Source of the DNA: Polyangia bacterium
GTDB taxonomy: Bacteria > Myxococcota_A > Polyangia > Palsa-1104 > JAEUJZ01
Reading direction: 5' to 3'
Assembly (NCBI GenBank): GCA_046351595.1
Contig: JAXLYE010000004.1
Location: 904,255-968,254 of the forward strand
DNA length: 64,000 nucleotides
The notes under the pieces were generated by a model. That model was not told the origin of the DNA. It ran no database searches and saw only the letters and a list, made by a program, of their open reading frames with translations. Below, piece after piece: positions 582-57,078 of this stretch. The position numbers and the translations under genes were made by a program. Position 1 is the first letter of the stretch. Each line of letters opens with the position of its first letter.

Positions 582-1010
582 ATGGACGCCCTGCCTGCCC
601 GCCTGATCGCCCACGTCTTCACCAAGGAGCCGCAGCCAGCCGAGAGCCTGGTCACCCTGCGCGAGCGGCTGTCCCAGGTCTGCGCGGAGCACGGCGCCAT
701 GCTGCTCGACTTCGTCCTCGATCACGAGCAGCCGGCGCGCCGGCTCCTCGACTACCCGTCGCTGGTGCGCATCGCGCGCGGCGAGGCCGACGGCCTGGTG
801 CTGACGCGGCTGCCGCTGTCGTTCGACGCCCGCCGCTCGCGCGATCGGCTGTGCGCGGCGCTCGTCGGCCCGCTGATGATCCTGACTGCCGCCGAGCTGC
901 GCACCCGCGGCCTGCTGCCGGTGCGCCTCGGCCGCCGCCCGCGCGCCGCCGCCAGCGCCCCGGCCGTGTCGAGCCGCGAGCCCGAGGGCGCCGAGCCGAC
1001 GCCGCACTGA
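582..1010 (+). CDS. hypothetical protein with a resolvase-catalytic-domain-like layout that lacks the nucleophilic Ser (alternative GTG start at 474)
   Basis: This is ORF 474..1010. GC3 bias begins at ATG 582 (MDALPARLIAHVFTKEPQ...). The layout is IAHVFTKEPQ ... LLDYPSLVRIARGEADGLVLTRLPLSF. It resembles the serine-recombinase N-terminal fold, but the conserved Ser is replaced by Phe. No HTH domain follows. Confidence 0.4.
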   Translation: MDALPARLIAHVFTKEPQPAESLVTLRERLSQVCAEHGAMLLDFVLDHEQPARRLLDYPSLVRIARGEADGLVLTRLPLSFDARRSRDRLCAALVGPLMILTAAELRTRGLLPVRLGRRPRAAASAPAVSSREPEGAEPTPH

Positions 1011-1016
1011 GCGGGA

Positions 1017-2155
1017 TCAGCCGTCGATCGCGCCCAGCTCGTCGTCTTCCGTCTTTGCCGCCTGGTGCTTCGCGCCCGGGGTCGTCGCGACCTGGGTCGT
1101 GCGCATGCCCATCTCGCGCAGGCACCACCTCAGCCCCTCCTGCAGGTTGCGCAGGGTGAGGATGCGCGACAGGTCGATGCCGAGGGACACCATGGCCTGC
1201 GCGACCAGCGGGTGGATGCCGGTGATGATGGCGCGGGCGCCGATCAGCTCGACGGCGCGCACCATGCGCACGAGGTAGCTGGCGCTGTTGGTGTCGACGG
1301 ACTCGATCGCGGTCAGATCGAGCAGCGCGTAGCGGGCGCGCGTGTTCACGACTTCCTGCAGCAGCCGCTCCTGCATCGCCGCGGTGCGCGTGCTGTCCAG
1401 GGTGCCCATCATCGGCACGGTCAGGATCCCGTCCCAGACCTGGATGATCGGCATGGCCATGGTGCGCATCGCCTCTTCCTGGCGCCGCACCACCTCGAGC
1501 GAGCCGCGCAGCTCCTCCTCGGTGCGCTCGCGCTCGCGGATCTGCTCGCGCAGCTTGCTCAGCGCCACCGCCAGGTCCGCGCTGGTCGCCTGCCCCGCGG
1601 ACAGCAGCCTCTCGAGCCGCTGCTCGATCGTGGTGTCGGTCGGCTGGACCAGGAACTCATCGAAGTCGCCGCCCAGCGCCGAGAACGCGGTCTGCTCGGC
1701 CCAGCACGGGGTTCCGAACAGGCGCGTGCAGATGCCGGCGAACTTGCCGGCCATCATGCCGCTGCCCCAGCTGACGCCGAGCGCGCGCTGGTAGATGCCC
1801 TCCCAGCTGTTCACCGTGCGCAGCCGCGCTTCCTTCTTCTCGCGGTCGAGCGAGATCACCTCCCAGCGGCCCCAGCCCGCGCTGCTGGCGACGCCGGACA
1901 TGACCTTCATCCCCTCTTCGAACGTCGGCTGGCTGCTGATGACGCCCCAGTCGCCGTCGACGCTGTCGATGCCGCCCTGCTGCAGGCAGAGGTTGAAGCG
2001 CTCGGTCCCGACCATGCGCTGCAGCCCGGACATCAGCCCGGCCACGGTCGTCGGGATCCACATGCTGAGAGCGGGAGTCCCGGCCCACAGGTTCAGGCCG
2101 CGCTCCAGATCCCACTCGATCTCAAAACCGCAGATCGAAATCTTCGGACGATCCA
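1017..2155 (-). CDS. STAS-domain protein (anti-sigma-factor-antagonist-like C-terminus) with an N-terminal sensory domain of about 200 aa
   Basis: ORF 1017..2189. The start is refined to ATG 2155 (MDRPKISICGF), preceded by GGAGGGAG 6 nt upstream. The C-terminus (ALLDLTAIESVDTNSASYLVRMVRAVELIGARAIITGIHPLVAQAMVSLGID) is a STAS/SpoIIAA-like fold. Confidence 0.65.
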
Positions 2156-2290: not shown

Positions 2291-4006
2291 TCAGAAGCTC
2301 ACACGCGCGCGGGCAAAGATCTCGCTGGCACCGGCGGCGGGGTCACCAAACTTGGTCGAGCGGTCGCCCAGCATGATGAAGCCTCCGACGGACAGCTCCG
2401 TCGCGTCCCAGACCGTCCACGCAATCTGTGGGAACAAGACTCCGGTCGGTGCGTAGTCATCCCACAGGCGCGTAGTGAGGTCGACTGAGGGCAGCTTCAC
2501 CACACCAAAGAGGCGCAGCAGCAGCCGGTCGCCGAGGAACTTCAGATCGAGGCCGGCGACCACATAGTCACCGACCCGTGCCTCGACGCGCGGCTTCTCG
2601 TTGATGTCGATGGCGTTGGTGCGCGGGCGTGCGGCGCGTCCGGCCCCGAACTCGTCGATGAAGCCGTGGACGTACTGGATGTTCATGTACACCCGGCCCT
2701 TGATGTTGTAGTCGATGCCCACCGTCGCCTTGGCGAACGGCGTCTTCTCGACGACGAGCGGCCGGTCGGCGGCGGCGGTGCCGGGCGGCTTGGTGTCGCG
2801 GAAGTAGCTCCCGGTCGCCGGGTTCTGCGAGTACTGGAACGGCTTCACCCCGCCCGGCGTGATGCCGTCGTAGAAGGCGAGCCCCACCTCGCCCGGGAAG
2901 ATCACCGCCGCCTCGGCCCAGTACCCCAGGCCGCCGAGCGTCTCGATGGAGCCCGCCATCTCGAGCCCGAGCACGTCCATCTTGGGGTACACGAGCAGCG
3001 TCTGGGTCAGGTTGTTGTCCAGCGTCCCCGTCGAGATCGACCACGCCGGGACCGGGATCCCGAACCGCCCGTGGTAGTACGAGAGGCCAATGTCCTGATC
3101 CTTCACCTTGGTCGTGGCGCGGAACCCGAACTGCATGTTCGACGCCGTGATCTCGGGCGCCAGCACGTCGGCGGTGATCGTCAGCGTGCGCCCCGAGGGC
3201 AGGTAGGTGCCGGTCACCGGATCGTACAGCGGCACGTAGATCGCGCGCTCGTCGTCGAGGGCCGAGCGGATCCCCTGGTTGGCGACCGGCGCCGGCCGCA
3301 GCGGATCGAGCAGCGCCACCGGCGCGGTGCGCGGCAGCTGCGCCGGCCGGAACACCGGCACCAGCACCGCCGTGAACGTCAGATCGCCGATCGGGTTCCA
3401 GTCGGCGCGGATCATGTTGTTGGCCAGCGCGCGCCCGAACTGCAGCGGATCCGACAGGTCCAGCGTGTTGAGGTTCGAGATCGGGTTGAACTTGTCCGCC
3501 GCGCCCCAGGGCACCGTCTGCCGACCGATGCGCAGATCGAAGCGCGGGATCACGTCGCCGAACAGGTTGTTGATGTCGATGAACGCAGCGTGGACCTCCA
3601 GGTAGTAGGGGTCGACGCGGTTGCGCAGCGTGGTCGAGTCGATGTCGCTGAGATCCGAGAACCCGAACAAGAGCAGCTCGGTGTCTGCGACGCCGCGGAT
3701 CTTGTCGCCGATGCGCAGGTTCAGCGCCGCGCGGATGCGGTTCTCGTTGCGCGAGAACCCGTTCTTCAGGATCGACCACTGCGAGGGGACCGGGTTCGGC
3801 GGCGCGCGCTCCTCGCCCAGGACGCGGAAGCGCATGTCGCTGGAGATCCAGCCCGAGAACTTGAGGTCGACGTCGGCCCGCGCCGCGGCGGGCGCGAGGA
3901 GCGTACAGGCGGCGGCGAGCGCCCAGGCCCAGGTCGACGGAGTCACGGACCCCGAGCCAGCGGGATCACGAGCGGGGCGCTCACGAGCAGCGCGCTCGTG
4001 GCCCAT
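2291..4006 (-). CDS. large outer-membrane beta-barrel protein (DUF1302-like) and likely outer-membrane partner of the upstream MMPL exporter; alternative start at 4060
   Basis: ORF 2291..4060 (589 aa). A signal peptide (WAWALAAACTLLAPAAARA) follows the internal Met at 4006. The protein ends in aromatic Phe (..ARARVSF), typical of beta-barrels. It lies directly downstream of the MMPL and LolA-like genes on the same strand. Confidence 0.55.
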   Translation of the reverse strand: MGHERAARERPARDPAGSGSVTPSTWAWALAAACTLLAPAAARADVDLKFSGWISSDMRFRVLGEERAPPNPVPSQWSILKNGFSRNENRIRAALNLRIGDKIRGVADTELLLFGFSDLSDIDSTTLRNRVDPYYLEVHAAFIDINNLFGDVIPRFDLRIGRQTVPWGAADKFNPISNLNTLDLSDPLQFGRALANNMIRADWNPIGDLTFTAVLVPVFRPAQLPRTAPVALLDPLRPAPVANQGIRSALDDERAIYVPLYDPVTGTYLPSGRTLTITADVLAPEITASNMQFGFRATTKVKDQDIGLSYYHGRFGIPVPAWSISTGTLDNNLTQTLLVYPKMDVLGLEMAGSIETLGGLGYWAEAAVIFPGEVGLAFYDGITPGGVKPFQYSQNPATGSYFRDTKPPGTAAADRPLVVEKTPFAKATVGIDYNIKGRVYMNIQYVHGFIDEFGAGRAARPRTNAIDINEKPRVEARVGDYVVAGLDLKFLGDRLLLRLFGVVKLPSVDLTTRLWDDYAPTGVLFPQIAWTVWDATELSVGGFIMLGDRSTKFGDPAAGASEIFARARVSF

Positions 4007-4183
4007 GCGCTCGTCTCCAAGACGCTCGGACGGGGAAGGGGAGGGGGTCTGCATGCGCATGCGGCCTCTCTATTCCGGCGGCTATCTGTCGGTTTGGGAG
4101 TACGGGAGGGATCCCGGAGCGGCGGCGAAGGGCTCCGGAAGCGCGCCGCGGTGCGCGGATCCGGAGCCCCGCCCAGGCGCGAG

Positions 4184-4978
4184 CTAGTTCCGCGTCAGCG
4201 CGCGCTGCGAGAAGTTGTCGTCGGTGTAGCCGTTGTTGAAGGTCGCCTTGACCAGGACCAGCTCGGTCTCGTGGTTGTTGCGGCGGTGGTCTGTGTAGAC
4301 CATCTTGCCCGGCGTCAGGAAGCCGCTCGGATCCTTCTGGAAGTCGCTGCGCACCGCGGTCCGGACCTTCTTGCCGCTGTCGTCCAGGTACTCGACCTTG
4401 TGCACCAGCGCGGTCTTGCCATCGACGTACAGCTTCTGCTTCTGCAGGCCCGCGGCCTTGGGCGTAAGCTCCAGCACGGTCAGCTCGCCGTCGGTGCCGG
4501 CGGACTTGGCGGTGAACAGGGCCGACAGGTCGGCGGCGTTCATGTCCGAGGACAGAAGGTCCGAGCCCATGAAGTTCTGGTTCATCTGGCTGGTGCCCAG
4601 GCGGCGGACGCGGTTCCCGAACGCCGGCAAGAGCGCGTACATGACATCCGCGGACTCGGACAGAAAGCCCATGCCCTTGATGTCGCCGGGCGCCAGGAAG
4701 CGCACCAGGCGCTTCTGCCCCTTCTGCATCGTCGTGAACTCGACCTCGCGCACCTGGCCGGGGTCCTTGATCCGCATCTTGAAGTGGAAGAAGGCGTCCT
4801 TGAACGCCGCGGCGGCGGCGTCGATGCGCTTGAGCAGCTGCTCGGCGCTCTCGCCTGCCGCCGGGGCCGCCGGGGCCGCCGGGGTCGTAGGATTCGCGGG
4901 CGCGGGCTGCGCCAGCGCGAGCCCCGCAGAGCCGATCAGCCCGGCGCACACCAGCGCCGAGAGGGTCCTCTTCAACAT
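4184..4978 (-). CDS. periplasmic LolA-fold protein (outer-membrane lipoprotein-sorting-like, DUF1329-like)
   Basis: 264 aa with a signal peptide (MLKRTLSALVCAGLIGSAGLALAQP). Its start lies 3 nt after the MMPL stop. The gene order matches the common MMPL / LolA-like / large-OMP neighbourhood. Confidence 0.5.
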   Translation of the reverse strand: MLKRTLSALVCAGLIGSAGLALAQPAPANPTTPAAPAAPAAGESAEQLLKRIDAAAAAFKDAFFHFKMRIKDPGQVREVEFTTMQKGQKRLVRFLAPGDIKGMGFLSESADVMYALLPAFGNRVRRLGTSQMNQNFMGSDLLSSDMNAADLSALFTAKSAGTDGELTVLELTPKAAGLQKQKLYVDGKTALVHKVEYLDDSGKKVRTAVRSDFQKDPSGFLTPGKMVYTDHRRNNHETELVLVKATFNNGYTDDNFSQRALTRN

Positions 4979-4981
4979 CGG

Positions 4982-7699
4982 TTACTCCTTGTCTTGTTTG
5001 CGCTTGTCCTGGGTACGCATCAGCGCGGGGACCAGAAGGAACGTGAACGCCGCGGACAGCACCATGCCGGCGCACGACAGCCCGCCGAACAGGCGGATCG
5101 GCGGCGCCCCGCCCAGCATCATCACGCCCATGCCCAGCCCGAGCAGCACCGCGGTGGTAAAGATCACCGGCCCCACCGTAGGCACGACCTCGCGCGCCGG
5201 GCGCTGGCGCAGGTACCAGATGTAGTGCATCGCGAAGTCGGCGCCCGAGCTGGTCACGATGCTTCCGACGAGCGAGGTGCCCAGATCAATCGGTCGGCCG
5301 AGCAGCCCGAGCCCGCCGAACACCACCAACAGCGCCATCACCGCCGGCGCCATCGACAGGATCGCCAGCCCGAGCGAGCGCTGCGCGATCAGCAGCGCCA
5401 CGAGCACCGAGATCAGCGCGATGCCCAGGCTCGCCCACTGGTTGCGGTCGACGGCGCGCGAGAACGCCTGGTCGAGCATGGGCTCGCCGGTCAGGCTGGC
5501 GCGCAGCGGCGCTTGGGCCGGGCCCTCGTCGGTGGGGACCAAGAGCGCGGTGGCGCACAGCTCGATCTCGGCGCGCACCTCGTCGCTCGGGCGGCCGTGC
5601 AGCTGCGCCGCCTGCGTGCCCGGGTCCAGGCCGAGCGCCTGCATCAGCAGCTCGACCGCCTTCTTCTGCGCCGCGGACAGGCGCGCGGCTTCGGCGTCGG
5701 CCGCTGCCGCCGGATCCGCCTCGGCATCGGCGCCGGTCCCGGACCCTGCGGGCGTCGCCGCGGGCGCCGGCAGCGGACCGGCCAGGCCCGGGCCCTCGCG
5801 CTCGATGCGCTGCGCCGCTAAAAGGACCGCGGCGGCGCGCGCCGGGCGCTCGCTCGCGGGCAGCAGCCAGCCCAGCTCCTCGGCCAGCTCGGCCGCCGTC
5901 GGGCGGCGCAGCGCGAACGGCCAGCGCGCCTTTAGGTAGTCGCGCAGCCCTGCCAGCACCGGCGCCGCCTCGCCCAAAAGGCGCACGTGCACGAGCGCCG
6001 CGCTCTGATCGCTGGTCACCAGCGTGCGCAGCGATGCCTCGCCGCCGATCAGCGAGTACAGGGTGCCGACCTGCGCCGCCTTGCTCGGCAGCCCGCGCAT
6101 GCCGGCCATGGACTCGTTGACCAGGGCCAGCGGCTGCACGATCGACTGCACCTGCGTCACCCCCGGCAGCGCGCGCGCGAACGCCGTCAGCCGGCGCAGC
6201 TCCTGCAGCGTGCGCGGATCCTTCAGGTCGCCCTCGACCACCACCTGCGCGAACTGGGCGCCGCCGAAGCGCGTGTCCAGAAACTCCTGCGCCAGCGCCG
6301 GCTCCGAGCCCGGGCGGAAGAAGGCGCGCGGCTCCATGCGCACCTGCACCCGCGTCATGCCGCCCGCGCACAGCAGCGCCAAAAGCCCGCTCGCGCCGAC
6401 GACCAGCCACCGCCGCCGCTGCGCGAAGTCGAACACCGCCTGCAACAGGCCCCCGAGCGCGGTGAAGCGCACGTGCCCCTTGCCGCCCGAGCCCGGCCAC
6501 GCCGCCGCCACCGACGGCAGCACCGTCACCGAGAGCAGCCAGCACAGGACCACGCCGAGGCTGCAGGCGACGCCGAAGGCGCGCATCGCCGAGATGTTCA
6601 TCACCAGGAACGACAGGAAGCCCAGGCAGCAGTTCACCGCGGCCACGGTCACCGGCGGGCCGGCGATGCGCAGCGCCGCCACCGCCGCGTCCAGCGGCGA
6701 CAGGCGCGGCTGCTCGGCGCGGATCAGGTAGTAGCGCCCGAGGATGTGGATCGCGTACTGGCTGCCCGAGGCGAAAAAGACCAGCGGCAGCGTGCCCGTG
6801 ACGACCGTGAACGGCTCGCCCAAAAGGCCCATGCCGCCGAGCACCAGCGCCGCCGACAGGCCGACCGTCACCACCGTCAGCGCCACCGGCACCGCGTCGC
6901 GGAAGGCCAAAAGCACGACCCCGAAGAACAGGATCAGCGACAGCGGCGTCAGGCGCCGCACGTCCTGCTGGGTGTCGTCGTAGATCGCCGGGCCCGCGAA
7001 CGGCGCGCCGCCGAAGTACAGCTCGGCCACCGGCGCGAGCTCCTTCTGCGAGAGCGCGCGCGCCTTGTCGGTCAGCGCCTGCGTCTTCTGCCCCTCGACC
7101 AGGAAGACCATCACCAGCGCCGCGGTGCCGTCGGCCGAGACGATGTTGCCGCGGATCGTCGGCTGCGACAGCGCGCGCTGCTCGATCGCCTTGAGCGCCG
7201 CCGCATCCTCGGGGATCTCGGGCGGCACCAGCGGCTTGATCTCGACGCCGAAGTCGCTGGGCACCATGTCCGTCATCTTGGTCAGCGACAGCACGCGGTC
7301 CACGCCCTCGCTGTTCTCGAGCGCGCGCGACAGCCGATCGATGCGCCGCAGAAGGTCGCTGCGGAAGACCGAGCCGCCGTCGCGCGGGCGCACGCCGATG
7401 AGCGCGACGCGCAGCGCGCCGAAGCGCTTGGCCACGTCCTTGAAGACCGCGACGTCGGTGTCGCCCTGCGGCAGGAACACCAGGATGTCGTCCTCGTTGC
7501 GCAGGCGGCTCATGCCCACGGCCGCGAGCGCGGCCAGGAGCCCCACCAGCACGAGCAGGCTGCGCGGTCGTGCGAGCAGGCTGCGCAGCCGCTGCGGCCC
7601 GCGCCCCGCGGCCCCGTGCGCGCCCGGCCCGGCCGGGCCCGGTCCCGAGGGCGAGCGTCCCGAGGGCGAGCGTCCCGAAGGTGAGTGTGCGTCGGACAC
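4982..7699 (-). CDS. MMPL/RND-superfamily inner-membrane exporter (two 6-TM bundles plus periplasmic domains)
   Basis: ORF 4982..7927 (981 aa). The hydrophobicity pattern is typical of MMPL/HpnN-like transporters, with two TM clusters separated by large soluble domains. The likely start is GTG 7699 (VSDAHSPSGRSPSG..., ahead of the first TM segment SLLVLVGLLAALAAVG). The annotated ATG 7927 would add an Arg/Pro-rich extension. Confidence 0.75.
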   Translation of the reverse strand: MSDAHSPSGRSPSGRSPSGPGPAGPGAHGAAGRGPQRLRSLLARPRSLLVLVGLLAALAAVGMSRLRNEDDILVFLPQGDTDVAVFKDVAKRFGALRVALIGVRPRDGGSVFRSDLLRRIDRLSRALENSEGVDRVLSLTKMTDMVPSDFGVEIKPLVPPEIPEDAAALKAIEQRALSQPTIRGNIVSADGTAALVMVFLVEGQKTQALTDKARALSQKELAPVAELYFGGAPFAGPAIYDDTQQDVRRLTPLSLILFFGVVLLAFRDAVPVALTVVTVGLSAALVLGGMGLLGEPFTVVTGTLPLVFFASGSQYAIHILGRYYLIRAEQPRLSPLDAAVAALRIAGPPVTVAAVNCCLGFLSFLVMNISAMRAFGVACSLGVVLCWLLSVTVLPSVAAAWPGSGGKGHVRFTALGGLLQAVFDFAQRRRWLVVGASGLLALLCAGGMTRVQVRMEPRAFFRPGSEPALAQEFLDTRFGGAQFAQVVVEGDLKDPRTLQELRRLTAFARALPGVTQVQSIVQPLALVNESMAGMRGLPSKAAQVGTLYSLIGGEASLRTLVTSDQSAALVHVRLLGEAAPVLAGLRDYLKARWPFALRRPTAAELAEELGWLLPASERPARAAAVLLAAQRIEREGPGLAGPLPAPAATPAGSGTGADAEADPAAAADAEAARLSAAQKKAVELLMQALGLDPGTQAAQLHGRPSDEVRAEIELCATALLVPTDEGPAQAPLRASLTGEPMLDQAFSRAVDRNQWASLGIALISVLVALLIAQRSLGLAILSMAPAVMALLVVFGGLGLLGRPIDLGTSLVGSIVTSSGADFAMHYIWYLRQRPAREVVPTVGPVIFTTAVLLGLGMGVMMLGGAPPIRLFGGLSCAGMVLSAAFTFLLVPALMRTQDKRKQDKE
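7644..7688. repeat. 15-bp tandem repeat x3 (cccgagggcgagcgt) encoding SPSGR x3 at the MMPL N-terminus
   Basis: Read directly: cccgagggcgagcgt / cccgagggcgagcgt / cccgaaggtgagtgt. Confidence 0.85.
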
Positions 7700-7719
7700 G
7701 ATAGCGCCGGACGCTATCG
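7699..7719. promoter_or_regulatory. perfect 8-bp inverted repeat with a 5-bp spacer (CGATAGCG-ccgga-CGCTATCG) overlapping the putative MMPL start codon; candidate operator
   Basis: Read directly from the sequence. The palindrome abuts or overlaps the GTG at 7697-7699. Confidence 0.5.
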
Positions 7720-7982
7720 GGTTTCGTCTGGCCCGACAAGGGGCGTGCAATACCGCACCCGGGCCCGCGCGGGGCCGCCTCCGACCGCGCGCCGGAGACC
7801 GCAAAAGACCGAATTCTCCGTCGGAGCTGCGCGGCCTCCGGGGACACCCGAGGGCCGCCGCCGCGCTGTTCGTTTTCGCACCCGGAGGGGCCCGCGCGCG
7901 CCGCGGCCGGTGGGACTTTTCCCCCATTCCGCGCCCCGCCGCGCTGCGCTACGGTCCGCGCGTTCTCGACGAGGAGGTAGCC

Positions 7983-19347: not shown

Positions 19348-19554
19348 CGTCGCGCGCCACGCATCGGGGGCGCCCCCGGTCCCGGGCTCATGGCCTGCGC
19401 GCACCGGCGGCGCCTTCTTTCTTGGCGCGTGCCAGTCCGCTCTGCCGATCGGCTTTGCAGATCAGCTTGGCCGATCGGCTTTGTCGATTGTCCCGGGCCT
19501 CGTCGCACACCGGCGGTCCGCAGCACAAAAGCGTGTCCCTGCATCACTCCGTGC

Positions 19555-19582
19555 TTGACTCCAGGCGGCCAAAAAATAAACT
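19555..19582 (+). promoter_or_regulatory. sigma70-like promoter candidate TTGACT-N16-TAAACT upstream of tRNA-Cys
   Basis: The hexamers are read directly. tRNA-Cys begins 57 nt downstream. Confidence 0.4.
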
Positions 19583-19639
19583 GCGGTTCTCGTGGCTGGC
19601 GCGGTCAGCCCGGTGCTTGGCCGGTATTCGAAGTCGTTC

Positions 19640-19714
19640 GGCGGCATAGCCAAGTGGTAAGGCAAAGGTCTGCAAAACCTTCATTCCCCGGTTCAAATCC
19701 GGGTGCCGCCTCCA
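19640..19714 (+). tRNA. tRNA-Cys (anticodon GCA), CCA encoded
   Basis: Manual cloverleaf: acceptor GGCGGCA/TGCCGCC, anticodon stem AAGGT/ACCTT with loop CTGCAAA, T-loop TTCAAAT. Confidence 0.88.
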
Positions 19715-19847
19715 GCAGGACCTCGACACGCTGCAGTCGGGGCTAGGTCAGAGAAGAAGGTCGGCCGGTCGGAAGTTTTTCAAGCAGCAGAAAAAAGTTG
19801 TTGACAGCGACCGGCAAATTGAAGCACTACATAGCCACTTTTCGAAC

Positions 19848-19920
19848 GGGCCCATAGCTCAACTGGCAGAGCAGCGGACTCTTAATCCGTTTGTTGTAGG
19901 TTCGATTCCTACTGGGCTCA
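19848..19920 (+). tRNA. tRNA-Lys (anticodon CTT)
   Basis: Acceptor GGGCCCA/TGGGCTC, anticodon stem GCGGA/TCCGT with loop CTCTTAA, T-arm GTAGG-TTCGATT-CCTAC. Confidence 0.85.
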
Positions 19921-19925
19921 CCGAC

Positions 19926-19960
19926 AAAAAGCCGTAGTCCTTGACTACGGCTTTTTTATT
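19926..19960 (+). terminator. rho-independent terminator (GCCGTAGTC-ctt-GACTACGGC followed by TTTTTTATT) after tRNA-Lys
   Basis: Perfect 9-bp stem plus a U-tract, read directly. An A-tract upstream makes it potentially bidirectional. Confidence 0.8.
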
Positions 19961-19978
19961 GCCGATTTCTATCCCCAC

Positions 19979-20060
19979 GCGAGAGTGGCGGAATTGGCAG
20001 ACGCACCAGACTTAGGATCTGGCGCCTAACGGCGTAAGGGTTCAAATCCCTTCTCTCGCA
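19979..20060 (+). tRNA. tRNA-Leu (anticodon TAG), long variable arm
   Basis: Acceptor GCGAGAG/CTCTCGC, anticodon stem CCAGA/TCTGG with loop CTTAGGA, variable arm CGCCTAACGGCG, T-loop TTCAAAT. Confidence 0.88.
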
Positions 20061-20122
20061 CCGTTAAGGGGGGGACCTTCCCGTCCCCCCTCCCTCGGCC
20101 GAGCCGAGTGAGCCTCCCCCCA

Positions 20123-20150
20123 CCGCGCGTGGCTCGCGCGGGTTTTGGGG
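20123..20150 (+). terminator. candidate terminator hairpin CCGCGCG-tggct-CGCGCGG followed by GTTTTGGGG; a G-rich hairpin at 20068-20090 precedes it
   Basis: Read directly. The T-tract is weak. Confidence 0.35.
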
Positions 20151-20207
20151 AACCTGCCCGTCTTCCCTCATCGAACCAAGCTCGGTGAGCGTCCTGGCTC
20201 GGCGGGG

Positions 20208-21947
20208 TCAGCGCGCCCAGCGGAGGGCGCCTGCTTCGTCGAGGGCCAGGAGGTACTCGCCGAGGATCCGGCCCTGCGCGCTCAGCCGCTCGGGGGTCGC
20301 GAGCGCGGCCAGGAGCCCGAGGGCGCGCTGGCGGTACAGCCTGCGGCTCGGCTCAGGAACCCCGGCGGCGCGGGACAGCGCGGCCAGCGCGCGCGCCACA
20401 AGGACGTTGGCCGCAAACGGCTGCTCGCGGCGCGCGAACACCCCGGCGGCGCCCGGGTCGTTGGTGCTGACCCACAGCAGCCCGCTCGACGGAGCGTACA
20501 GCGTCCGCCACAGCGTCGCGGTGATGCGCTCGGCCGCCTCGCGGTACCGAATCGCCCCAGCCATCGCCCCGGCCTGCTGGCCGAGCCGCGCCAGCGCCAG
20601 CGCCAGCGCCGCCCCGTCCGCGAGGAAGCGCAGGCTCGAGGTCGCGATCGCCTCGCGCTTGACCGTGCCGTCGGGCTCGACGTGGCTGCGCAAGATCGCG
20701 TCCGCGGCCTGCTCCGCCGCCTTCTGGTACAGCGCGGCCTGCGGCTCTCCGTGCAGCGCCGCGGCGAGCGCGCTCAGCGCCGCGATGGCCAGCCCGTTCT
20801 CGAAGGCGTAAACGTGGTCGTCGATGCGCGGGATGCCGAGGGCGCGGCGCCCGGCGTCGTCCTTGGCGTAGTAGACGTGGCCGTCGACGAACCCGCGCTC
20901 CTTGTCGTGGCCGCCGAGGTCCGCGTCCTGGCTGACCAGGAACAGCCCGTCGCGGTTGCGCAGAAACGACAGCACGTAGCCGGCCACGCGCTCGCCGTCG
21001 GCGCGGGCGCTCGCGCGATCGGCGGGCGCGGGCAGCTCGGTGAGCGCGCGCGCGGCGGCCTCGATCGCGGCGGTCTGCAGCGGCAGCCGCTTCTCGAAGT
21101 GCGGCTCGGTCCACACGCCATTCACGGAGTACTGGTAGACGCCGCCCCAGACCGGATCGATCAGCGCGCGCTGCTTCTCGAGCGTGAAGCGGGCGCGCTC
21201 GCGGGCGGCGTCGTCGCCGTGGCGGGCGCGCACCAGCTCGAACTCGACGTTGGCGCCGAGCGGCATCTTCTGCCGCTTGCCCCAGCCGCCCTCGTCGCGA
21301 TCGTAGTAATCGTCGAGCAGCTGCGTCGCCTGCGCCCCGATCCAGCCGAGCATGCCGACGGGCACGGGCGGCGTGATCAGCCCGCGCCGCGCCGGCGCCG
21401 CCTGCGCACCGGACCCCGGGGCCGCGCCGCGCTGCAGCGCCTGCTCGACCCGCTGCCGCAGCACCTCGGGCGCCAGGTAGCCGCGGAACTTGCCGAGCTC
21501 CTCACCGCCCGCGCTGAGCAGCACCGTCGCCGGCCAGCCGTAGTCCTCGTAGCGCGAGGCGAGGTCCGGGCGCGAGTCGATGTCGACGCGCACCGCCACC
21601 ACCTTGTCGCGCAGCAGCCGCCCGAGCTCGGGATCCGTGTACGTCGTGTCGTCCATGACGTGGCACCAGTGGCACCACGTCGCGACGCAGTCGAGCAGCA
21701 CCAGCTTGCCCTCGCGCTGCGCGCGGGCGAAGGCGGCGGGCCCGTACTCGTCCCAGGTGAAGCCGAGCTTCTTTCCCGCCTGGCGCGCGGCGGCGATGTC
21801 CTCCTCGGGCGGAGTCGACGGTGCGCTCGCGGCGGGCGGCGGCGTCGGCACCGTGGGCGCGCCGGCACAGCCGGCCAGAGTCACGAGCAGCCCGAGCGAG
21901 AGCCCGGGCCGGGAGGGCGCACCGCGGCGCGTCGGCAGACAGAGCAT
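20208..21947 (-). CDS. thioredoxin-domain (DUF255/YyaL-like) lipoprotein with a C-terminal alpha/alpha-toroid (N-acylglucosamine-2-epimerase-like) region
   Basis: ORF 20208..21980, start trimmed to ATG 21947 (MLCLPTRRGAPSRPGLSLGLLVTLAGC lipobox). The DUF255 motif LLDCVATWCHWCHVMDD is present. Confidence 0.7.
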   Translation of the reverse strand: MLCLPTRRGAPSRPGLSLGLLVTLAGCAGAPTVPTPPPAASAPSTPPEEDIAAARQAGKKLGFTWDEYGPAAFARAQREGKLVLLDCVATWCHWCHVMDDTTYTDPELGRLLRDKVVAVRVDIDSRPDLASRYEDYGWPATVLLSAGGEELGKFRGYLAPEVLRQRVEQALQRGAAPGSGAQAAPARRGLITPPVPVGMLGWIGAQATQLLDDYYDRDEGGWGKRQKMPLGANVEFELVRARHGDDAARERARFTLEKQRALIDPVWGGVYQYSVNGVWTEPHFEKRLPLQTAAIEAAARALTELPAPADRASARADGERVAGYVLSFLRNRDGLFLVSQDADLGGHDKERGFVDGHVYYAKDDAGRRALGIPRIDDHVYAFENGLAIAALSALAAALHGEPQAALYQKAAEQAADAILRSHVEPDGTVKREAIATSSLRFLADGAALALALARLGQQAGAMAGAIRYREAAERITATLWRTLYAPSSGLLWVSTNDPGAAGVFARREQPFAANVLVARALAALSRAAGVPEPSRRLYRQRALGLLAALATPERLSAQGRILGEYLLALDEAGALRWAR

Positions 21948-26954: not shown

Positions 26955-28637
26955 CTAGGTCCGCGCGATGCCGGTGCGGCGCTCCTGCTCACCGCGCACG
27001 CGCGCCCGCCACGCCTTGGCCAGCGAGTACTCGGGGTCGAGCGCCAGCGAGCGATCCAGGCACAGCATCGCCGACTCCAGGTTCTCGGCCTGGTAGTGGC
27101 ACATCGCCATGTTGCACAGCGTCACCGCGTGCTCGCCGAACAGCCGCAGCGAGATCTCGTTGTAGCGCAGCGCCTCGACGGGACGGCCGAGCGCCAGGTA
27201 TACGCGCGCGAGCTCGAAGGGCAGGTCGCGGCCGAACGGATAGAAGTGCTCCCACAGCCGCTCCAGCATCAGCCCGAGCTCGTAGCGCACGGACTCCGGC
27301 GCCGCGGCGGCGTTGTCGACCAGCTGCTGGCTGTAGTCGAAAAAGACGCTGGGATCGTGGCGCGACAGCTTGATGACGCCGTGGATCTGCTCGACGGTGA
27401 GCTGCGGCGACGCGCTGCGCAGCGCGGTGACGTGGGTGTAAAAGTCGTAGGGGCCGAAGTCCTCGGCGTGCTCCTGGAACGAGACCAGCGTGTCGGCGAA
27501 GTCCTCGGCGCTGCCGCCGCACAGAAGGGCCGCGGTCTTCAGGCTCACCTGCCGCGACGTGGTCAGCGCCGCGTAGCCGCCGCGCCCGCGCACGTACTCG
27601 GCCAGCGCGTGGAAGTTGACCATCGTCGAGAGCACCGAGTCGTGGTGCTGCACGTACGAGTCGCTGAGGTAGCTGAGCTCGTCCTCGGAGGCGTAGCCCT
27701 TGTCCGACGACAGAACCAGCATCCGCCCGGCCGACAGCGCGAGCAGCCGGCGCATGCAGCGCAGCGCCGCGATCGGGAACACCACGTGTGTGTCGGCCAG
27801 CCGCTCGGCATAAAGCGCCAGGATGCGGTCGAGCGCCGGGTCGTCCTCGTAGTAGGGCAGGGTGATCGGGCGATGCTCGAAGCGCGTCTCCATGTCGCCG
27901 AGCACGTCCGCGTCCTCAAGGCGCGCCTCGGGCCGCGGCGAGTACAGCGTCGCCATCGCCTCGTACAGCTTGCCGCCCTGCACCTTGAAGCCGTCGAGCA
28001 GCACGGTGTCGAAGATGTAGTTGGCGATGACGATGAGCGGGTTGCACAGAGACTCGGGCGACAGGAGCTCGCCGCTGTTCACGAGCTGCAGCCGATCCGA
28101 GCGCTCGACGTCGAAGCGCGCGAAGTCGAGCACGCCCGCCTCGACGAACGGCTTGAGCTGCGGCTGCTCTTGGAAGGCGCGCAGGTTGCTCTCCGCGAAG
28201 TCCGTCATCACGTAGCGGATCTTGAGCCGGCGCAGCGACGAGGCGCCGATGAGCGGCAGCAGCTGCTTGAGCAGGAAGAACGAGAGCTGCCCGTGCCCGG
28301 CCGCCAGCTCGATGATGTAGATCGGCTTGCTCGGATCGAGCGGCGCCGCCTCGGGAGAGTCCGCGCCGGCCGGGCCGCGCTGCGCCTTCATCAGAAGATC
28401 GCGCAGGTACGACACGATGAGCTGCGCGTAGGCGTGGGCGATGAACGGGTTGCTGGTGATGTAGAAGGGCACCGGCCCGTCCTGCCACGCGGCGGGCCCC
28501 TTCTCGTCGTAGAACCGGCGCGTGAGCGGCCAGAGCTGCGACTCGGAGAGGCGCTTGCCGCGCTCGAGCACGATGCCGTCGGTCGCGGGTTTCTGTGATC
28601 CGGAAGGGTCCTGGTCGTGGGTCTCTCGGTCGCTCAT
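26955..28637 (-). CDS. putative SAM-dependent methyltransferase-like protein with C-terminal TPR repeats
   Basis: ORF 26955..28910 trimmed to ATG 28637 (MSDRETHDQ). The Rossmann-like motif IYIIELAAGHGQLSF is present. TPR-like repeats occur at the C-terminus (ALRYNEISLRLFGEHAVTLCNMAMCHYQAENLESAMLCLDRSLALDP). Confidence 0.5.
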   Translation of the reverse strand: MSDRETHDQDPSGSQKPATDGIVLERGKRLSESQLWPLTRRFYDEKGPAAWQDGPVPFYITSNPFIAHAYAQLIVSYLRDLLMKAQRGPAGADSPEAAPLDPSKPIYIIELAAGHGQLSFFLLKQLLPLIGASSLRRLKIRYVMTDFAESNLRAFQEQPQLKPFVEAGVLDFARFDVERSDRLQLVNSGELLSPESLCNPLIVIANYIFDTVLLDGFKVQGGKLYEAMATLYSPRPEARLEDADVLGDMETRFEHRPITLPYYEDDPALDRILALYAERLADTHVVFPIAALRCMRRLLALSAGRMLVLSSDKGYASEDELSYLSDSYVQHHDSVLSTMVNFHALAEYVRGRGGYAALTTSRQVSLKTAALLCGGSAEDFADTLVSFQEHAEDFGPYDFYTHVTALRSASPQLTVEQIHGVIKLSRHDPSVFFDYSQQLVDNAAAAPESVRYELGLMLERLWEHFYPFGRDLPFELARVYLALGRPVEALRYNEISLRLFGEHAVTLCNMAMCHYQAENLESAMLCLDRSLALDPEYSLAKAWRARVRGEQERRTGIART

Positions 28638-28855
28638 TGCTCGCTCGGTTCGGGTGCTCGTATCGGGCTCGGGGTCGGGGTCGGTCGGGGCTCGGGGCGT
28701 TCGCGGGCGTCTTGGTTCACATCGGCGGTCCGCGGCTCGGCAGGTCGCAGGGCGGACCACAGGGTGCGAGCCGGCGCCCCGGCGCCTGCAAGAGCGGACC
28801 CAGTCTACCGAGCGAGCGAGCGAGCGCGTCAGGAAAGTTGTGAGCTGGCGCAGGT

Positions 28856-28910
28856 TGTCCGATCTGTCCGATCTGAAAACTCGGACTGTCTCAGACACTG
28901 TCTCAGACAA
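28856..28910. repeat. tandem short repeats: TGTCCGATC x2 (28856-28873) and ACTGTCTCAGACA x2 (28885-28910). The second unit is itself an inverted repeat, TGTCT-c-AGACA.
   Basis: Read directly, in the leader region upstream of the minus-strand methyltransferase gene. Confidence 0.8.
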
Positions 28911-29229
28911 TTTGCCCTGCGGCCGGGTCGCGGCCGGGTTGCGGTGGCTCCAGTTTCTGCCCGTTCAGGGAGTCTCCGACGGGAGCGCAAAAAGAGGCCG
29001 CGGCCGGCCGGCTGGCATGGCGGTTGCGATAATAGGCGAGCAAGAGGCCGCAAGGCCTGGACGGACCCACGGCTCGCGCTTCCGGCCTGCGCGGGCTGCT
29101 GCGGCCCTGCATATGGGGGTATGCGGGGCTGCGGTGCGCGCGCGGCGGAGTCGGCCAAGGGGGGCACGACACCCCCGCGCGCCACCCGGGGCCTGCACGT
29201 ATCAAGACCTACTGCGGTGGGCGCTGGCT

Positions 29230-29545
29230 ATGTCGGGCGTGCTCACAGCCAGGAGGCTGCTGCGCGCGCCCGCCTACGCCATCGCCCATCCTCGCTACGG
29301 TCTTGATACGTGCGGCAGGAGTGCGGCTTTGGGGGACGGGCGTGCTCGCCGCCATAGGGCGGCTTCGCGCTCGCCTGCGGCCTCGCTCTTCCTCGCTGCG
29401 CTTCGTTAGACGTGCGGCTGGAGGGCGGGAGCTTTGTGATGTCGGGCGTGCTCCTGGCCATAGGGCGGCTTTGCGCGCTCGCCTGCGGCCTCGCCTCTCC
29501 TGGCTGCGGTTCTGATACCTGCAGGCGTGCTGCTGGTGTTCTTGC
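29230..29545. repeat. about three degenerate direct copies of a ~105-bp element, each beginning ATGTCGGGCGTGCTC and containing GCCATAGGGCGGCTT(C/T)GCGC(G)CTCGCCTGCGGCCTCGC
   Basis: Blocks at 29230, 29333-29400 and 29439-29509 are about 85% identical over 68 bp. The region has no sustained GC3 bias, so it is non-coding. Confidence 0.7.
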
Positions 29546-29747
29546 TGCGGGCGTACGGTTTGGGTGCGGAAGCGCACGGGGAGCGGTGCGGCGGCGCGGC
29601 GGCGCGGGGCGGCTCCATCACCTGCGGCGGGGGCGGTCGTCGACGGGTGTTGCGGTCGCGCACGGGGCTTTCCCGGGGGAGCGGGTTGTGGCACACAGGT
29701 TGCCAATCCCAGCCACGCCGATCGCACAAGATCGGGGAGATCTCCAC

Positions 29748-30857
29748 ATGTCAGCTTCCGTCGAGACCCCGTCACAGCCTTCGCCGCACGCCGAGGGCGA
29801 GCGCGCGCAGCAGCGGCTCATCTCGCAGCGCAAGACCGATCACATCAACCTCTGCGCCTCGGGTGAGGTCGAGTTCCGCGAGAAGGGCACGCTGCTCGAT
29901 CAGGTGCAGCTCGTGCACGACGCGCTGCCCGACCGCCACATGGACGAGGTCGATCTGACGACGGTGATGTTCGGCAAGTGCCTCAAGGCGCCCGTCATCA
30001 TCAGCGCCATGACCGGCGGCACCGACGAGGCGCAGGAGATCAATAAGGATCTGGCGCGCGCCGCCGAGGCGCTCGGGCTGGGCTTCGGCCTGGGCTCGCA
30101 GCGCGCCATGCTGGTGCGCCCCGAGACCTTCCGCACCTTCGAGATCCGCGACGTCGCGCCGTCGGCGCTGGTGCTGGGCAACATCGGCCTGGTGCAGGCG
30201 CGCGAGATGTCGACCGCGGACGTGCGCGCGCTGTGTGATCGCGTCGGCGCGGACGCGCTGTGCGTGCACCTGAACCCGGCGATGGAGCTGATCCAGCCGG
30301 GCGGCGACCGCGACTTCCGCGGCGGCCTGGACACGCTGCGCCGCCTGCACAACGAGCTCGGCGTGCCCGTCATCGTCAAAGAAACCGGCTGCGGCCTGTC
30401 TCGCAGCGTCGGCACGCGCATCCGCGCGCTCGGCATCCAGGCGGTCGACGTCAGCGGCGCCGGCGGCACCTCGTGGGTCGCGGTCGAGACGCGGCGCGCG
30501 ACCGGTGACGCGCAGCGGCTCGGCGAGGCGCTGTGGGACTGGGGCATCCCGACCGGCGCGTCGGTGGGCCTGCTCGCGGACCTCGGCCTCACGATCATCG
30601 CCACCGGCGGCGTGCGCAGCGGCATGGACGTCGCGCACGCGCTCGCGCTCGGGGCCACCGCGGGCGGCCTGGCGGCGCCGGTGCTGCGCGCCTGGAAGGC
30701 CGGCGGCTACGACGGCGTCATCGCCTTCCTTCAGCACGTCATCGACGGCGTCCGCGCCGCGACCTTTTTGACCGGCTGCCGCACCCCGGCCGAGCTGCGG
30801 CACGCCCCGCGCGTCCTCGGCTCGACGCTGCGCGCCTGGATCACCGAGGGCCGCTAG
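29748..30857 (+). CDS. fni: type-2 (FMN-dependent) isopentenyl-diphosphate delta-isomerase
   Basis: ATG 29748 is preceded by GGGGAGA. The conserved start RKTDHINLC is present, with an FMN-dependent TIM-barrel (GGTDEAQEINKDLARAAEALGLGFGLGSQRA; VKETGCGLS; GAGGTSW). Confidence 0.85.
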   Translation: MSASVETPSQPSPHAEGERAQQRLISQRKTDHINLCASGEVEFREKGTLLDQVQLVHDALPDRHMDEVDLTTVMFGKCLKAPVIISAMTGGTDEAQEINKDLARAAEALGLGFGLGSQRAMLVRPETFRTFEIRDVAPSALVLGNIGLVQAREMSTADVRALCDRVGADALCVHLNPAMELIQPGGDRDFRGGLDTLRRLHNELGVPVIVKETGCGLSRSVGTRIRALGIQAVDVSGAGGTSWVAVETRRATGDAQRLGEALWDWGIPTGASVGLLADLGLTIIATGGVRSGMDVAHALALGATAGGLAAPVLRAWKAGGYDGVIAFLQHVIDGVRAATFLTGCRTPAELRHAPRVLGSTLRAWITEGR

Positions 30858-56478: not shown

Positions 56479-57078
56479 ATGACGAAGACAACTGCCCCAT
56501 CCAAGAAGTCCGCCAGCTCCACCTCGACCCCCAAGAAGGCCGCTGCCAAGAAGGGCGCGACCAAGAAGAAGGCCGCTGCCAAGAAGCCGGCCGCCAAGAA
56601 GACCGCGAAGGCCGGCGCCAAGAAGACCGCTGGCAAGAAGGCCGCGCCGAAGAAGACCGCGGCCAAGAAGGCCGCGCCGAAGAAGACCACGGCCAAGAAG
56701 GCCGCGCCGAAGAAGGCCGCTGGCAAGAAGGCCGCGCCGAAGAAGGCCGCTGGCAAGAAGGCCGCGCCGAAGAAGGCCGCTGGCAAGAAGGCCGCGCCGA
56801 AGAAGGCCGCTGGCAAGAAGGCCGCCGCGCCCAAGAAGGCCGCTGGCAAGAAGACCGCCGCGCCCAAGAAGGCCGCCGGCCGCAAGGCGCCCAGCACCAA
56901 GTCGGCTCCGAAGGCCGCTCCCGCGACCGAGAAGACCGGGACCGAGACCACCGCGACCGCGCCGGCCGCGACCAAGGCCCCCTCGCGCAAGTCGTCGGCC
57001 AGCAAGGCCAGCAAGAGCAGCAACGGCTCGACGAACGGCGGCGCCGGCGACTCGACGCCCCCGACCAGCGCTTCGTAG
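56479..57078 (+). CDS. histone-H1-like Lys/Ala-rich nucleoid-associated protein (AKKAAPKK repeats)
   Basis: ATG 56479 is preceded by GAAAGGGA. 199 aa, about 30% Lys and 35% Ala. Repeated KKAAGKKAAP units. Confidence 0.8.
   Translation: MTKTTAPSKKSASSTSTPKKAAAKKGATKKKAAAKKPAAKKTAKAGAKKTAGKKAAPKKTAAKKAAPKKTTAKKAAPKKAAGKKAAPKKAAGKKAAPKKAAGKKAAPKKAAGKKAAAPKKAAGKKTAAPKKAAGRKAPSTKSAPKAAPATEKTGTETTATAPAATKAPSRKSSASKASKSSNGSTNGGAGDSTPPTSAS
56641..56853. repeat. 30-bp tandem repeat (gccgcgccgaagaaggccgctggcaagaag): 4 identical copies (56701-56820) flanked by variant copies
   Basis: Read directly. Lies within the histone-like CDS. Confidence 0.9.

Follow-up and report, generated by a model that had tools for sequence, protein, structure and literature searches.

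What occupies the long gap in front of the mevalonate operon of this Polyangia bacterium, and why is it so long? The stretch analysed here (64 kb of contig JAXLYE010000004.1, called the window throughout, with positions counted from its first letter) contains a non-coding gap at 28638-29747, which separates a methyltransferase/TPR gene (minus strand, start 28637) from fni (plus strand, ATG at 29748). We compared this gap with its counterparts in related genomes, and our analysis of conserved sequence and predicted folds suggests that it is most likely a genuine and unusually elaborate composite control region with two sigma-54-type promoters, P1 and P2, both facing the mevalonate operon. Its length would be due to its contents, namely promoters, activator sites, an RNA core, tandem hairpins and leaders: approximately 200 nt are accounted for by the divergent promoter and leader, ~150 nt by the extra promoter and its activator sites, ~155 nt by the structured RNA core, ~350 nt by the tandem hairpins and ~190 nt by the activator site, promoter and leader of the operon. 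The explanation that we favour, with slightly better than even confidence, is that P1 drives a structured RNA composed of a conserved core (block E) and a hairpin, the latter being a variable 3' module whose tandem duplications are the '105-bp repeats' of this gap.

Orthologous gaps were taken from five related uncultured Polyangia lineages, known from metagenomes, which were found by protein searches with the methyltransferase and fni and by one metagenome pattern scan. L085 has 91-95% DNA identity to the window (gap shorter by ~111 nt), and the L090 contig, with fni 96% identical, begins at the equivalent of window position 29183. Identity of fni is 89% in L082 (gap of 858 nt) and ~87% in the groups L083/L084 and L091-L094 (gaps of 771 and 822 nt). 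The divergent methyltransferase-fni arrangement is common to all four relative groups. As negative controls we used the 80 fni loci of the genome collection (fni at most 81% identical), which lack both a methyltransferase homologue and any DNA similarity to the gap. A metagenome scan with a 19-mer of block E returned one true relative (L085) and four chance matches, and in viral contigs a 20-mer of block E and the hairpin termini had chance matches only.

Evidence for the two promoters came from a scan of both strands of the window (128 kb) with the sigma-54 pattern TGGCAC-N5-TTGC (GG-N10-GC), allowing at most one mismatch. There were three matches, two of which lie in the 1.1-kb gap, both on the fni (+) strand. 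P2 is followed by the ribosome-binding site GGGGAG and then by the fni start codon; it is present in all six lineages, and ~45 nt around it are invariant in five. Of the 12 closest other fni loci, eight have a P2-like motif, TGGC[AG]C-N5-[TC]TGC, immediately before the fni gene, and L095 carries it as well; the 68 more distant loci have none. These P2-like promoters are preceded by a (G/T)TGCG-N4-CGCAC palindrome, at -79 to -122 in L001, L002 and L095 by regular-expression search, and at about -110 to -130 in L004-L007 as read by eye from the sequences. The L095 locus (fni 80%) has an AraC-family regulator as divergent neighbour of fni (904-1929, minus strand) and a gap of only 210 nt (1930-2138), and still retains a P2-like promoter with the palindrome GTGCGAGAGCGCAC at -122. 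A related Myxococcota metagenome-assembled genome (MAG), L002, encodes a PAS histidine kinase, an NtrC-type activator and a polyprenyl synthetase (3500-7790, minus strand) divergently from fni (8001); the response regulator contains a Sigma54_activat domain (E value 2e-60), and the mevalonate operon beside it has a P2-like promoter and the palindrome GTGCGAATCCGCAC.

Motif match, conservation, the clade-wide palindrome and the kinase/activator context of L002 are the reasons for which we regard P2 and its palindrome as a well-supported prediction of an activator-dependent promoter of the mevalonate operon, which from P2 reads fni-mvk-mvd-(pmk)-HMG-CoA reductase. P2, with the palindrome GTGCGGAAGCGCAC ~125 nt upstream, would be the operon's own promoter, separate from P1. 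We infer that both promoters are used by sigma-54 and that the palindromes bind activators. Two further features adjoin P2. A hairpin, CCGATC-loop-GATCGG (29718-29735), abuts the fni ribosome-binding site; its stem is invariant in five lineages, with a loop of 6-10 nt, and is disrupted in L090. A GC-only simple repeat, (GCGGCGCG)x3.8 at 29583-29613, lies between the two copies of the P2 palindrome and has a counterpart in L085 only.

P1 has the same layout as P2 but is confined to a small clade. Its TGGCA and TGC are invariant in 5/5 lineages, the flanks vary and cannot be aligned, and it is found at a fixed ~31-38 nt upstream of block E. An array of palindromic boxes (TGTCTCAGACA) lies ~85-130 nt upstream of P1 and is restricted to loci that carry P1 and block E. 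The tandem inverted-repeat boxes ACTGTCTCAGAC were reported in the preliminary description and are indeed present; the 13-mer has no copy elsewhere in the window (4 strand-hits versus 0.56 expected). Their suggested role as a regulator site fits the comparative data, as the core GTCTNAGAC is present in one to three copies in every locus with the methyltransferase-fni arrangement and is almost absent elsewhere (two chance matches in ~1.1 Mb). The array may be the activator-binding site of P1, an operator in common with the divergent promoter, or both. The sequence AGTCTCCGACG, which stands between the array and P1, is in relatives part of a palindrome, CTCTCCG-A-CGGAGAG. A terminator-like site on the minus strand (28996-29009; GGCCGGCCGCGGCC then TCTTTTTG) is located just upstream of P1 and is not conserved in L082, L083 and L091.

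Block E is the part of the gap that most resembles an RNA gene. Its identity among relatives is ~85-90% as compared to 65-75% at the 4-fold degenerate sites of the flanking genes when the window is compared with L082, L083 or L091 (86% with L090). The RNAalifold consensus has 47-50 pairs, in helices of 10, 14 and 20 bp and a short closing stem, and block E sequences folded individually take the same shape (z scores of -3.8, -6.7 and -7.4). Across six distinct sequences, in an alignment that had been fitted to the model, 97.5% of pair cells are standard pairs, as against 33-49% in shifted registers; two pairs are compensatory and 11 vary on one side only. The pair cells include 28 G-U and no A-C combinations, which is what an RNA of the plus strand predicts and not what a DNA palindrome predicts. 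A covariance model of block E scored 107-136 bits on the plus strand and ~30 bits on the minus strand, and had no match in the other 81 related fni loci (L001-L080 and L095) or elsewhere in the window. Block E has no counterpart in Rfam: cmscan of the gap on both strands (E values up to 1), of four relatives and of the whole window at gathering thresholds gave spurious microRNA matches and three tRNAs, and nothing else.

Directly downstream of block E lie three contiguous copies of a unit of ~101-108 nt, without unique spacers between them, which in direct-repeat register extend across 29230-29545 with 74-88% identity (self-blastn E values of 3e-31 and 3e-12; direct-repeat families D1-D5). The preliminary description had noted three degenerate ~105-bp copies with a shared start; the copies and their extent were confirmed, but the start ATGTCGGGCGTGCTC is found in units 1 and 3 only, with unit 2 opening ACGGGCGTGCTC. 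Each unit is also a long hairpin in its own right, a feature absent from that description. Unit 1 is bounded by a perfect 15-bp inverted repeat (GCACGTATCAAGACC / GGTCTTGATACGTGC, at 29195-29209 and 29299-29313), which reaches 17 bp with one G-U pair. It aligns to its own reverse complement (blastn E value 3e-12) and its predicted folding energy is -85 kcal/mol, versus -50 kcal/mol for shuffled sequences (z score -9.05); for the whole array the z scores are -6.6 on the plus strand and -4.35 on the minus strand. The unit 1 orthologues of the window, L085 and L090 differ at a roughly neutral rate, and 96.5% of the cells of 48 pairs stay paired. Compensatory double changes, including GC-to-CG swaps, were detected in 9/48 pairs among these three genomes, a level reached by none of 500 shuffles, and shifted registers gave at most two. 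The apical loops vary across units and orthologues (AGGA, TCAA, CGAA and ATAG). Copy number also varies, with three units in the window, two in L085, one in L090 and none in L082, L083 and L091; the spacers equivalent to the hairpins in L082 and L083 have no unusual structure (z scores of -1.5 and -0.9). The ~105-bp repeats are lineage-specific tandem copies of the hairpin beside block E, and their earlier reading as regulator sites was not borne out. Within the 64 kb of the window and ~1.2 Mb of loci from relatives, no further copy of the unit was found, and the 13-mer box is unique in the window.

This part of the locus coincides with breaks in the assemblies. The contigs of L081, L090, L092, L093 and L094 end within block E or the hairpin or right beside them (in the region of block E and at the equivalent of window positions 29156-29183), and these five independent breaks in short-read assemblies probably reflect a drop in coverage or graph tangles in palindromic sequence of ~80% GC. 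In L093, Illumina adapter (GCTCTTCCGATCT) makes up the initial ~14 nt.

The coordinates of the features are collected in Table 1.

Table 1. Sequence features of the methyltransferase-fni gap, and the tRNA cluster of the window
Feature	Position	Strand	Remarks
Block A, CCCAGTCTACCGA..GAGCGAGCGCGTCAGGAAAGTTGTG	28797-28842	-	Includes (CGAG)n run; near-invariant and of constant length in 5 lineages
TGTCCGATC x2 direct repeat	28856-28875	n/a	One copy mutated in L085; absent from L082, L083, L091
Interleaved palindrome array	28880-28912	n/a	ACTGTCTCAGAC x2 at 28885-28909; core GTCTNAGAC; 104-128 nt upstream of P1
AGTCTCCGACG	28971-28981	n/a	Invariant columns of 5-sequence alignment; between box array and P1
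P1, TGGCATGGCGGTTGC	29013-29027	+	Sigma-54-type; 1 mismatch; predicted start near 29039
Block E	29063-29193	+	Candidate structured RNA, 131 nt; three-helix junction closed by short stem
Hairpin unit 1	29193-29316	n/a	124 nt, near-perfect, 17-bp terminal stem; directly after block E
Hairpin units 2 and 3	29317-29545	n/a	Degenerate tandem copies (direct-repeat families and blastn self-hits)
Palindrome GTGCGGAAGCGCAC	29564-29577	n/a	Candidate P2 upstream activator sequence; invariant in 6 lineages; -124 to -134 from P2
Palindrome copy TTGCGGTCGCGCAC	29650-29663	n/a	Imperfect second copy
P2, TGGCACACAGGTTGC	29689-29703	+	Sigma-54-type; 0 mismatches; predicted start near 29715
tRNA cluster Cys-GCA, Lys-CTT, Leu-TAG	19640-20062	+	Explains second-longest non-coding stretch

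These observations can be combined into a model in which the box array would serve as the activator site of P1, and P1 would in turn direct an unannotated structured RNA with the three-helix core of block E. The long GC-rich hairpin after block E would then probably be a 3'-terminal stem that stabilizes or terminates the RNA; it evolves fast with its pairing kept, and has probably been duplicated to three units in this genome with the two extra units now decaying. We infer from the folds and their conservation that block E is transcribed and that the hairpin belongs to its transcript, and such an RNA may act either in trans or in cis. The suggestion of a small-RNA locus in the preliminary description is probably right, but the conserved RNA-like element is block E, which that description did not flag, and not the repeats.

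Several points weigh against this model. The RNA is a prediction from sequence and folding, and the support for block E comes from six closely related metagenomic sequences in which most stem positions are invariant and covariation is thin. Its stems are conserved beyond the needs of pairing, which would also fit protein binding at the DNA level, and the first 25-30 nt at the 5' end of the predicted RNA are not conserved. A terminator scan found no U-tract after block E or after the hairpins, and hence no canonical intrinsic terminator. Units 2 and 3 fold in register, and do so no better than shuffled sequences (z scores of -2.2 and -0.75). The strand preference of unit 1 is inconsistent, with energies on the plus and minus strands of -85 and -81 kcal/mol in the window, -63 and -72.5 kcal/mol in L085, and -75 and -74 kcal/mol in L090, so the pairing may be maintained at the DNA level. 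Finally, no gene for a GAFTGA activator is present in the 64-kb window.

Alternatively, block E may be a cis-acting leader or riboswitch: transcripts from P1 would reach fni, block E would sense a ligand or protein, unit 1 would be the expression platform (a terminator), and read-through from P1 would add regulated expression to that from P2. In all genomes with block E, this closed multi-helix junction precedes the mevalonate operon on the plus strand. A conserved core and then a hairpin that varies but retains its structure is how an aptamer and its platform are usually laid out, and there is no U-tract terminator between block E and fni. We nevertheless consider the leader unlikely, given that P2, which is more widely conserved and has its own palindrome, stands between block E and fni, whose start is 555 nt away, and that conservation is mainly in the stems and less in the junctions and loops. 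Moreover, block E occurs in one small clade, is absent from the 81 further fni loci and does not recur across diverse taxa, and L082, L083 and L091 lack a comparable hairpin after it. As regards an adjacent expression platform, three lineages have a long hairpin after block E, located 430-555 nt from the fni start with P2 in between and lacking a U-tract. A more far-reaching proposal, that block E and the hairpin are a new regulatory RNA class tied to isoprenoid precursor synthesis, either as a riboswitch-like leader that senses a mevalonate-pathway intermediate or as a sigma-54-dependent, trans-acting small RNA (sRNA) that brings the mevalonate operon into step with another programme, is one that we regard as speculative and distinctly improbable.

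A second alternative dispenses with the RNA altogether, treating block E and the palindromes as protein-binding or architectural DNA for looping between enhancer and promoter, and the hairpins as palindromic DNA, neutral or selfish (MITE/REP-like or generated by slippage), in which hairpin-templated repair, and not selection on an RNA, would keep the arms matched. The behaviour of unit 1 suits this interpretation, as it folds about equally well on both strands (better on the minus strand in L085), has perfect 15-17-bp terminal inverted repeats and contains, among its compensatory changes, clustered GC-to-CG swaps that templated mutation would easily explain; variation in copy number is as expected from unequal exchange, and the stem sequences of block E are invariant. 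The asymmetry of G-U over A-C pairs in block E is, however, not predicted by constraints on DNA, and the conserved sigma-54-type promoter at a fixed distance upstream of block E also counts against this interpretation. For the selfish palindromes, no second locus with a copy of the unit was found in the 64-kb window or the ~1.2 Mb of related loci, and there is no visible target-site duplication. Taken as a whole, this combination of explanations is in our view doubtful.

Very little weight can be given to the third alternative, that the gap contains the decayed end of a mobile element, as had been suggested for the repeats, or a degenerate retron-like msr/msd locus. The methyltransferase-fni junction is limited to one small clade, the other 81 fni loci having a different upstream neighbour, and a structured RNA with a long hairpin after it, in a myxobacterium, bears a superficial likeness to msr-msd. 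The gap has no adjoining tRNA (the nearest is 8.6 kb away) and its flanks are the methyltransferase/TPR protein and fni. There is no reverse-transcriptase gene after the hairpin, with no coding signal up to fni, itself an FMN-dependent isomerase, although the rest of the window received no profile search for integrases or reverse transcriptases. The junction is also stably syntenic in at least four lineages with its internal blocks strongly conserved, and the absence of other copies from the window and from the ~1.2 Mb of related loci is a further reason why the idea of a decayed terminus was not upheld.

The claims that the gap has no credible open reading frame (ORF) and is unusually long were both borne out by codon-position analysis. 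Third codon positions of the flanking genes are 92-100% GC and their second positions 40-50% GC, and a frame plot shows that this periodicity is lost at ~28605-29775. A window-wide scan found this 1170-nt non-periodic stretch to be the longest in the 64 kb; the runner-up, of 840 nt (19380-20220), is accounted for by three tRNA genes. The start of the methyltransferase/TPR gene agrees with a 560-aa NCBI protein of a 'Polyangia bacterium' MAG (100% identity), and neither fni nor mvk of the window has an exact protein match on record. A missed protein gene (ORFs at 28522-29409 on the plus strand or 29209-29775 on the minus strand, or an in-frame extension of fni from 29412) is barely credible, since the long ORFs on both strands, the ATG that opens repeat units 1 and 3 and the resemblance of the translated third unit to a signal peptide are set against third-position GC periodicity that appears nowhere in 28640-29780, no Pfam match for the three long ORFs of the gap, repeat spacings of 101, 103, 106 and 108 whose indels are not multiples of three, and frame-breaking indels that separate the relatives.

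The left ~200 nt of the gap may constitute the promoter and leader of the divergent gene. Block A is probably the promoter/operator region of the methyltransferase/TPR gene, judging from its conservation and from the pair CTGACG-19 nt-TAGACT on its minus strand, which is weakly sigma-70-like; a consensus scan for sigma-70 promoters made no call. Both flanking promoters had been expected to lie in the gap: for the mevalonate operon this is supported by the conservation of P2 and its palindrome, and for the methyltransferase it would follow from block A. The 4-nt microsatellite described near 28810 is present as (CGAG)x4.5 at 28809-28826. It is not conserved as a repeat, being a chance extension of a conserved core, GAGCGAGCG, and the constant length of this core means that there is nothing pointing to phase variation. 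The pair of TGTCCGATC repeats is also present as described; it is lineage-specific and not conserved as a repeat.

Elsewhere in the window, at 56530-56880, there is a 30-nt tandem repeat of 11.6 copies (CCCAAGAAGGCCGCTGGCAAGAAGGCCGCG) with a local AT skew of 0.755, which if translated would give a Lys/Ala-rich (KKAA-type) repeat.

Should P2 and its palindrome function as predicted, activator-dependent sigma-54 control would apply to the mevalonate pathway in this Polyangia clade; at least one relative has the genes of the likely two-component system beside its mevalonate operon. Our literature search found no earlier case in which sigma-54 was linked to a mevalonate-pathway operon. Block E, if transcribed, represents a new structured RNA family which has a design logic like that of Pxr, in a different suborder and beside a metabolic operon. 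The hairpin provides a case of evolution in which, among near-identical genomes, nine compensatory changes keep the pairing while copy number goes from one to three. The practical value is moderate, as the clade is narrow and known from metagenomes only, and candidate structured RNAs are common.

We know of no characterized sRNA in Polyangia, and to our knowledge Pxr is the only well-studied sRNA of myxobacteria. In Myxococcus xanthus and other Cystobacterineae, Pxr is an intergenic RNA of ~110-130 nt with a predicted sigma-54 promoter and an upstream enhancer-binding region, and contains three stem-loops, of which the variable third is needed for accumulation; tandem paralogues occur in Cystobacter (PMC5684412, PMC5568312). 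The locus described here shares a sigma-54-type promoter, an enhancer-type region and three helices with Pxr, a resemblance of design that is insufficient for membership. Block E lies between the methyltransferase/TPR gene and fni, whereas Pxr lies between pxrR (nla19) and an NADH dehydrogenase gene; its host, a Polyangia bacterium, is outside the Cystobacterineae, the only group in which Pxr has been reported (PMC5568312). The helices of block E form a closed junction and not a linear series as in Pxr, and block E, unlike Pxr, has no U-tract terminator. Homology of block E with Pxr was rejected, as local alignment to 85 nt of ancestral Pxr was at the level of shuffled controls and there was no Rfam match.

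Modular repetition has a precedent in NrsZ of Pseudomonas, a sigma-54-dependent sRNA with repeated stem-loop modules, one to six between strains, which are ~40-nt hairpins sharing a conserved loop motif that is the functional seed (PMC4253122). Here too the number of modules downstream of a sigma-54-type promoter varies among relatives (3, 2, 1 and 0). In contrast to NrsZ, the units are ~105-124 nt, their apical loops are not conserved between units or orthologues, and a separate, non-repeated conserved core precedes them. The units also resemble ERIC, Correia/CREE, MITE and REP elements, being imperfect palindromes of ~100-130 bp with terminal inverted repeats in an intergenic position near promoters. 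They differ from these families in being tandem at a single locus, with no dispersed copies found in the sequence covered (64 kb here, ~1.2 Mb from relatives), and in having pairing kept by compensatory changes between orthologues, not by recent transposition. A search of the literature on MITEs in Sorangium found nothing relevant. There is also a correspondence with NtrC-type sigma-54 promoters, which have a correctly spaced -24 GG and -12 GC as do P1 and P2, with palindromes ~80-135 nt upstream and, in the relative L002, a kinase and NtrC-type activator pair beside the target operon. What departs from the usual NtrC-type case is that two such promoters stand in tandem in one gap and that the first apparently serves a non-coding RNA. 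The gap would be a sigma-54-driven regulatory RNA and promoter architecture of a known type, and not a new kind of system.

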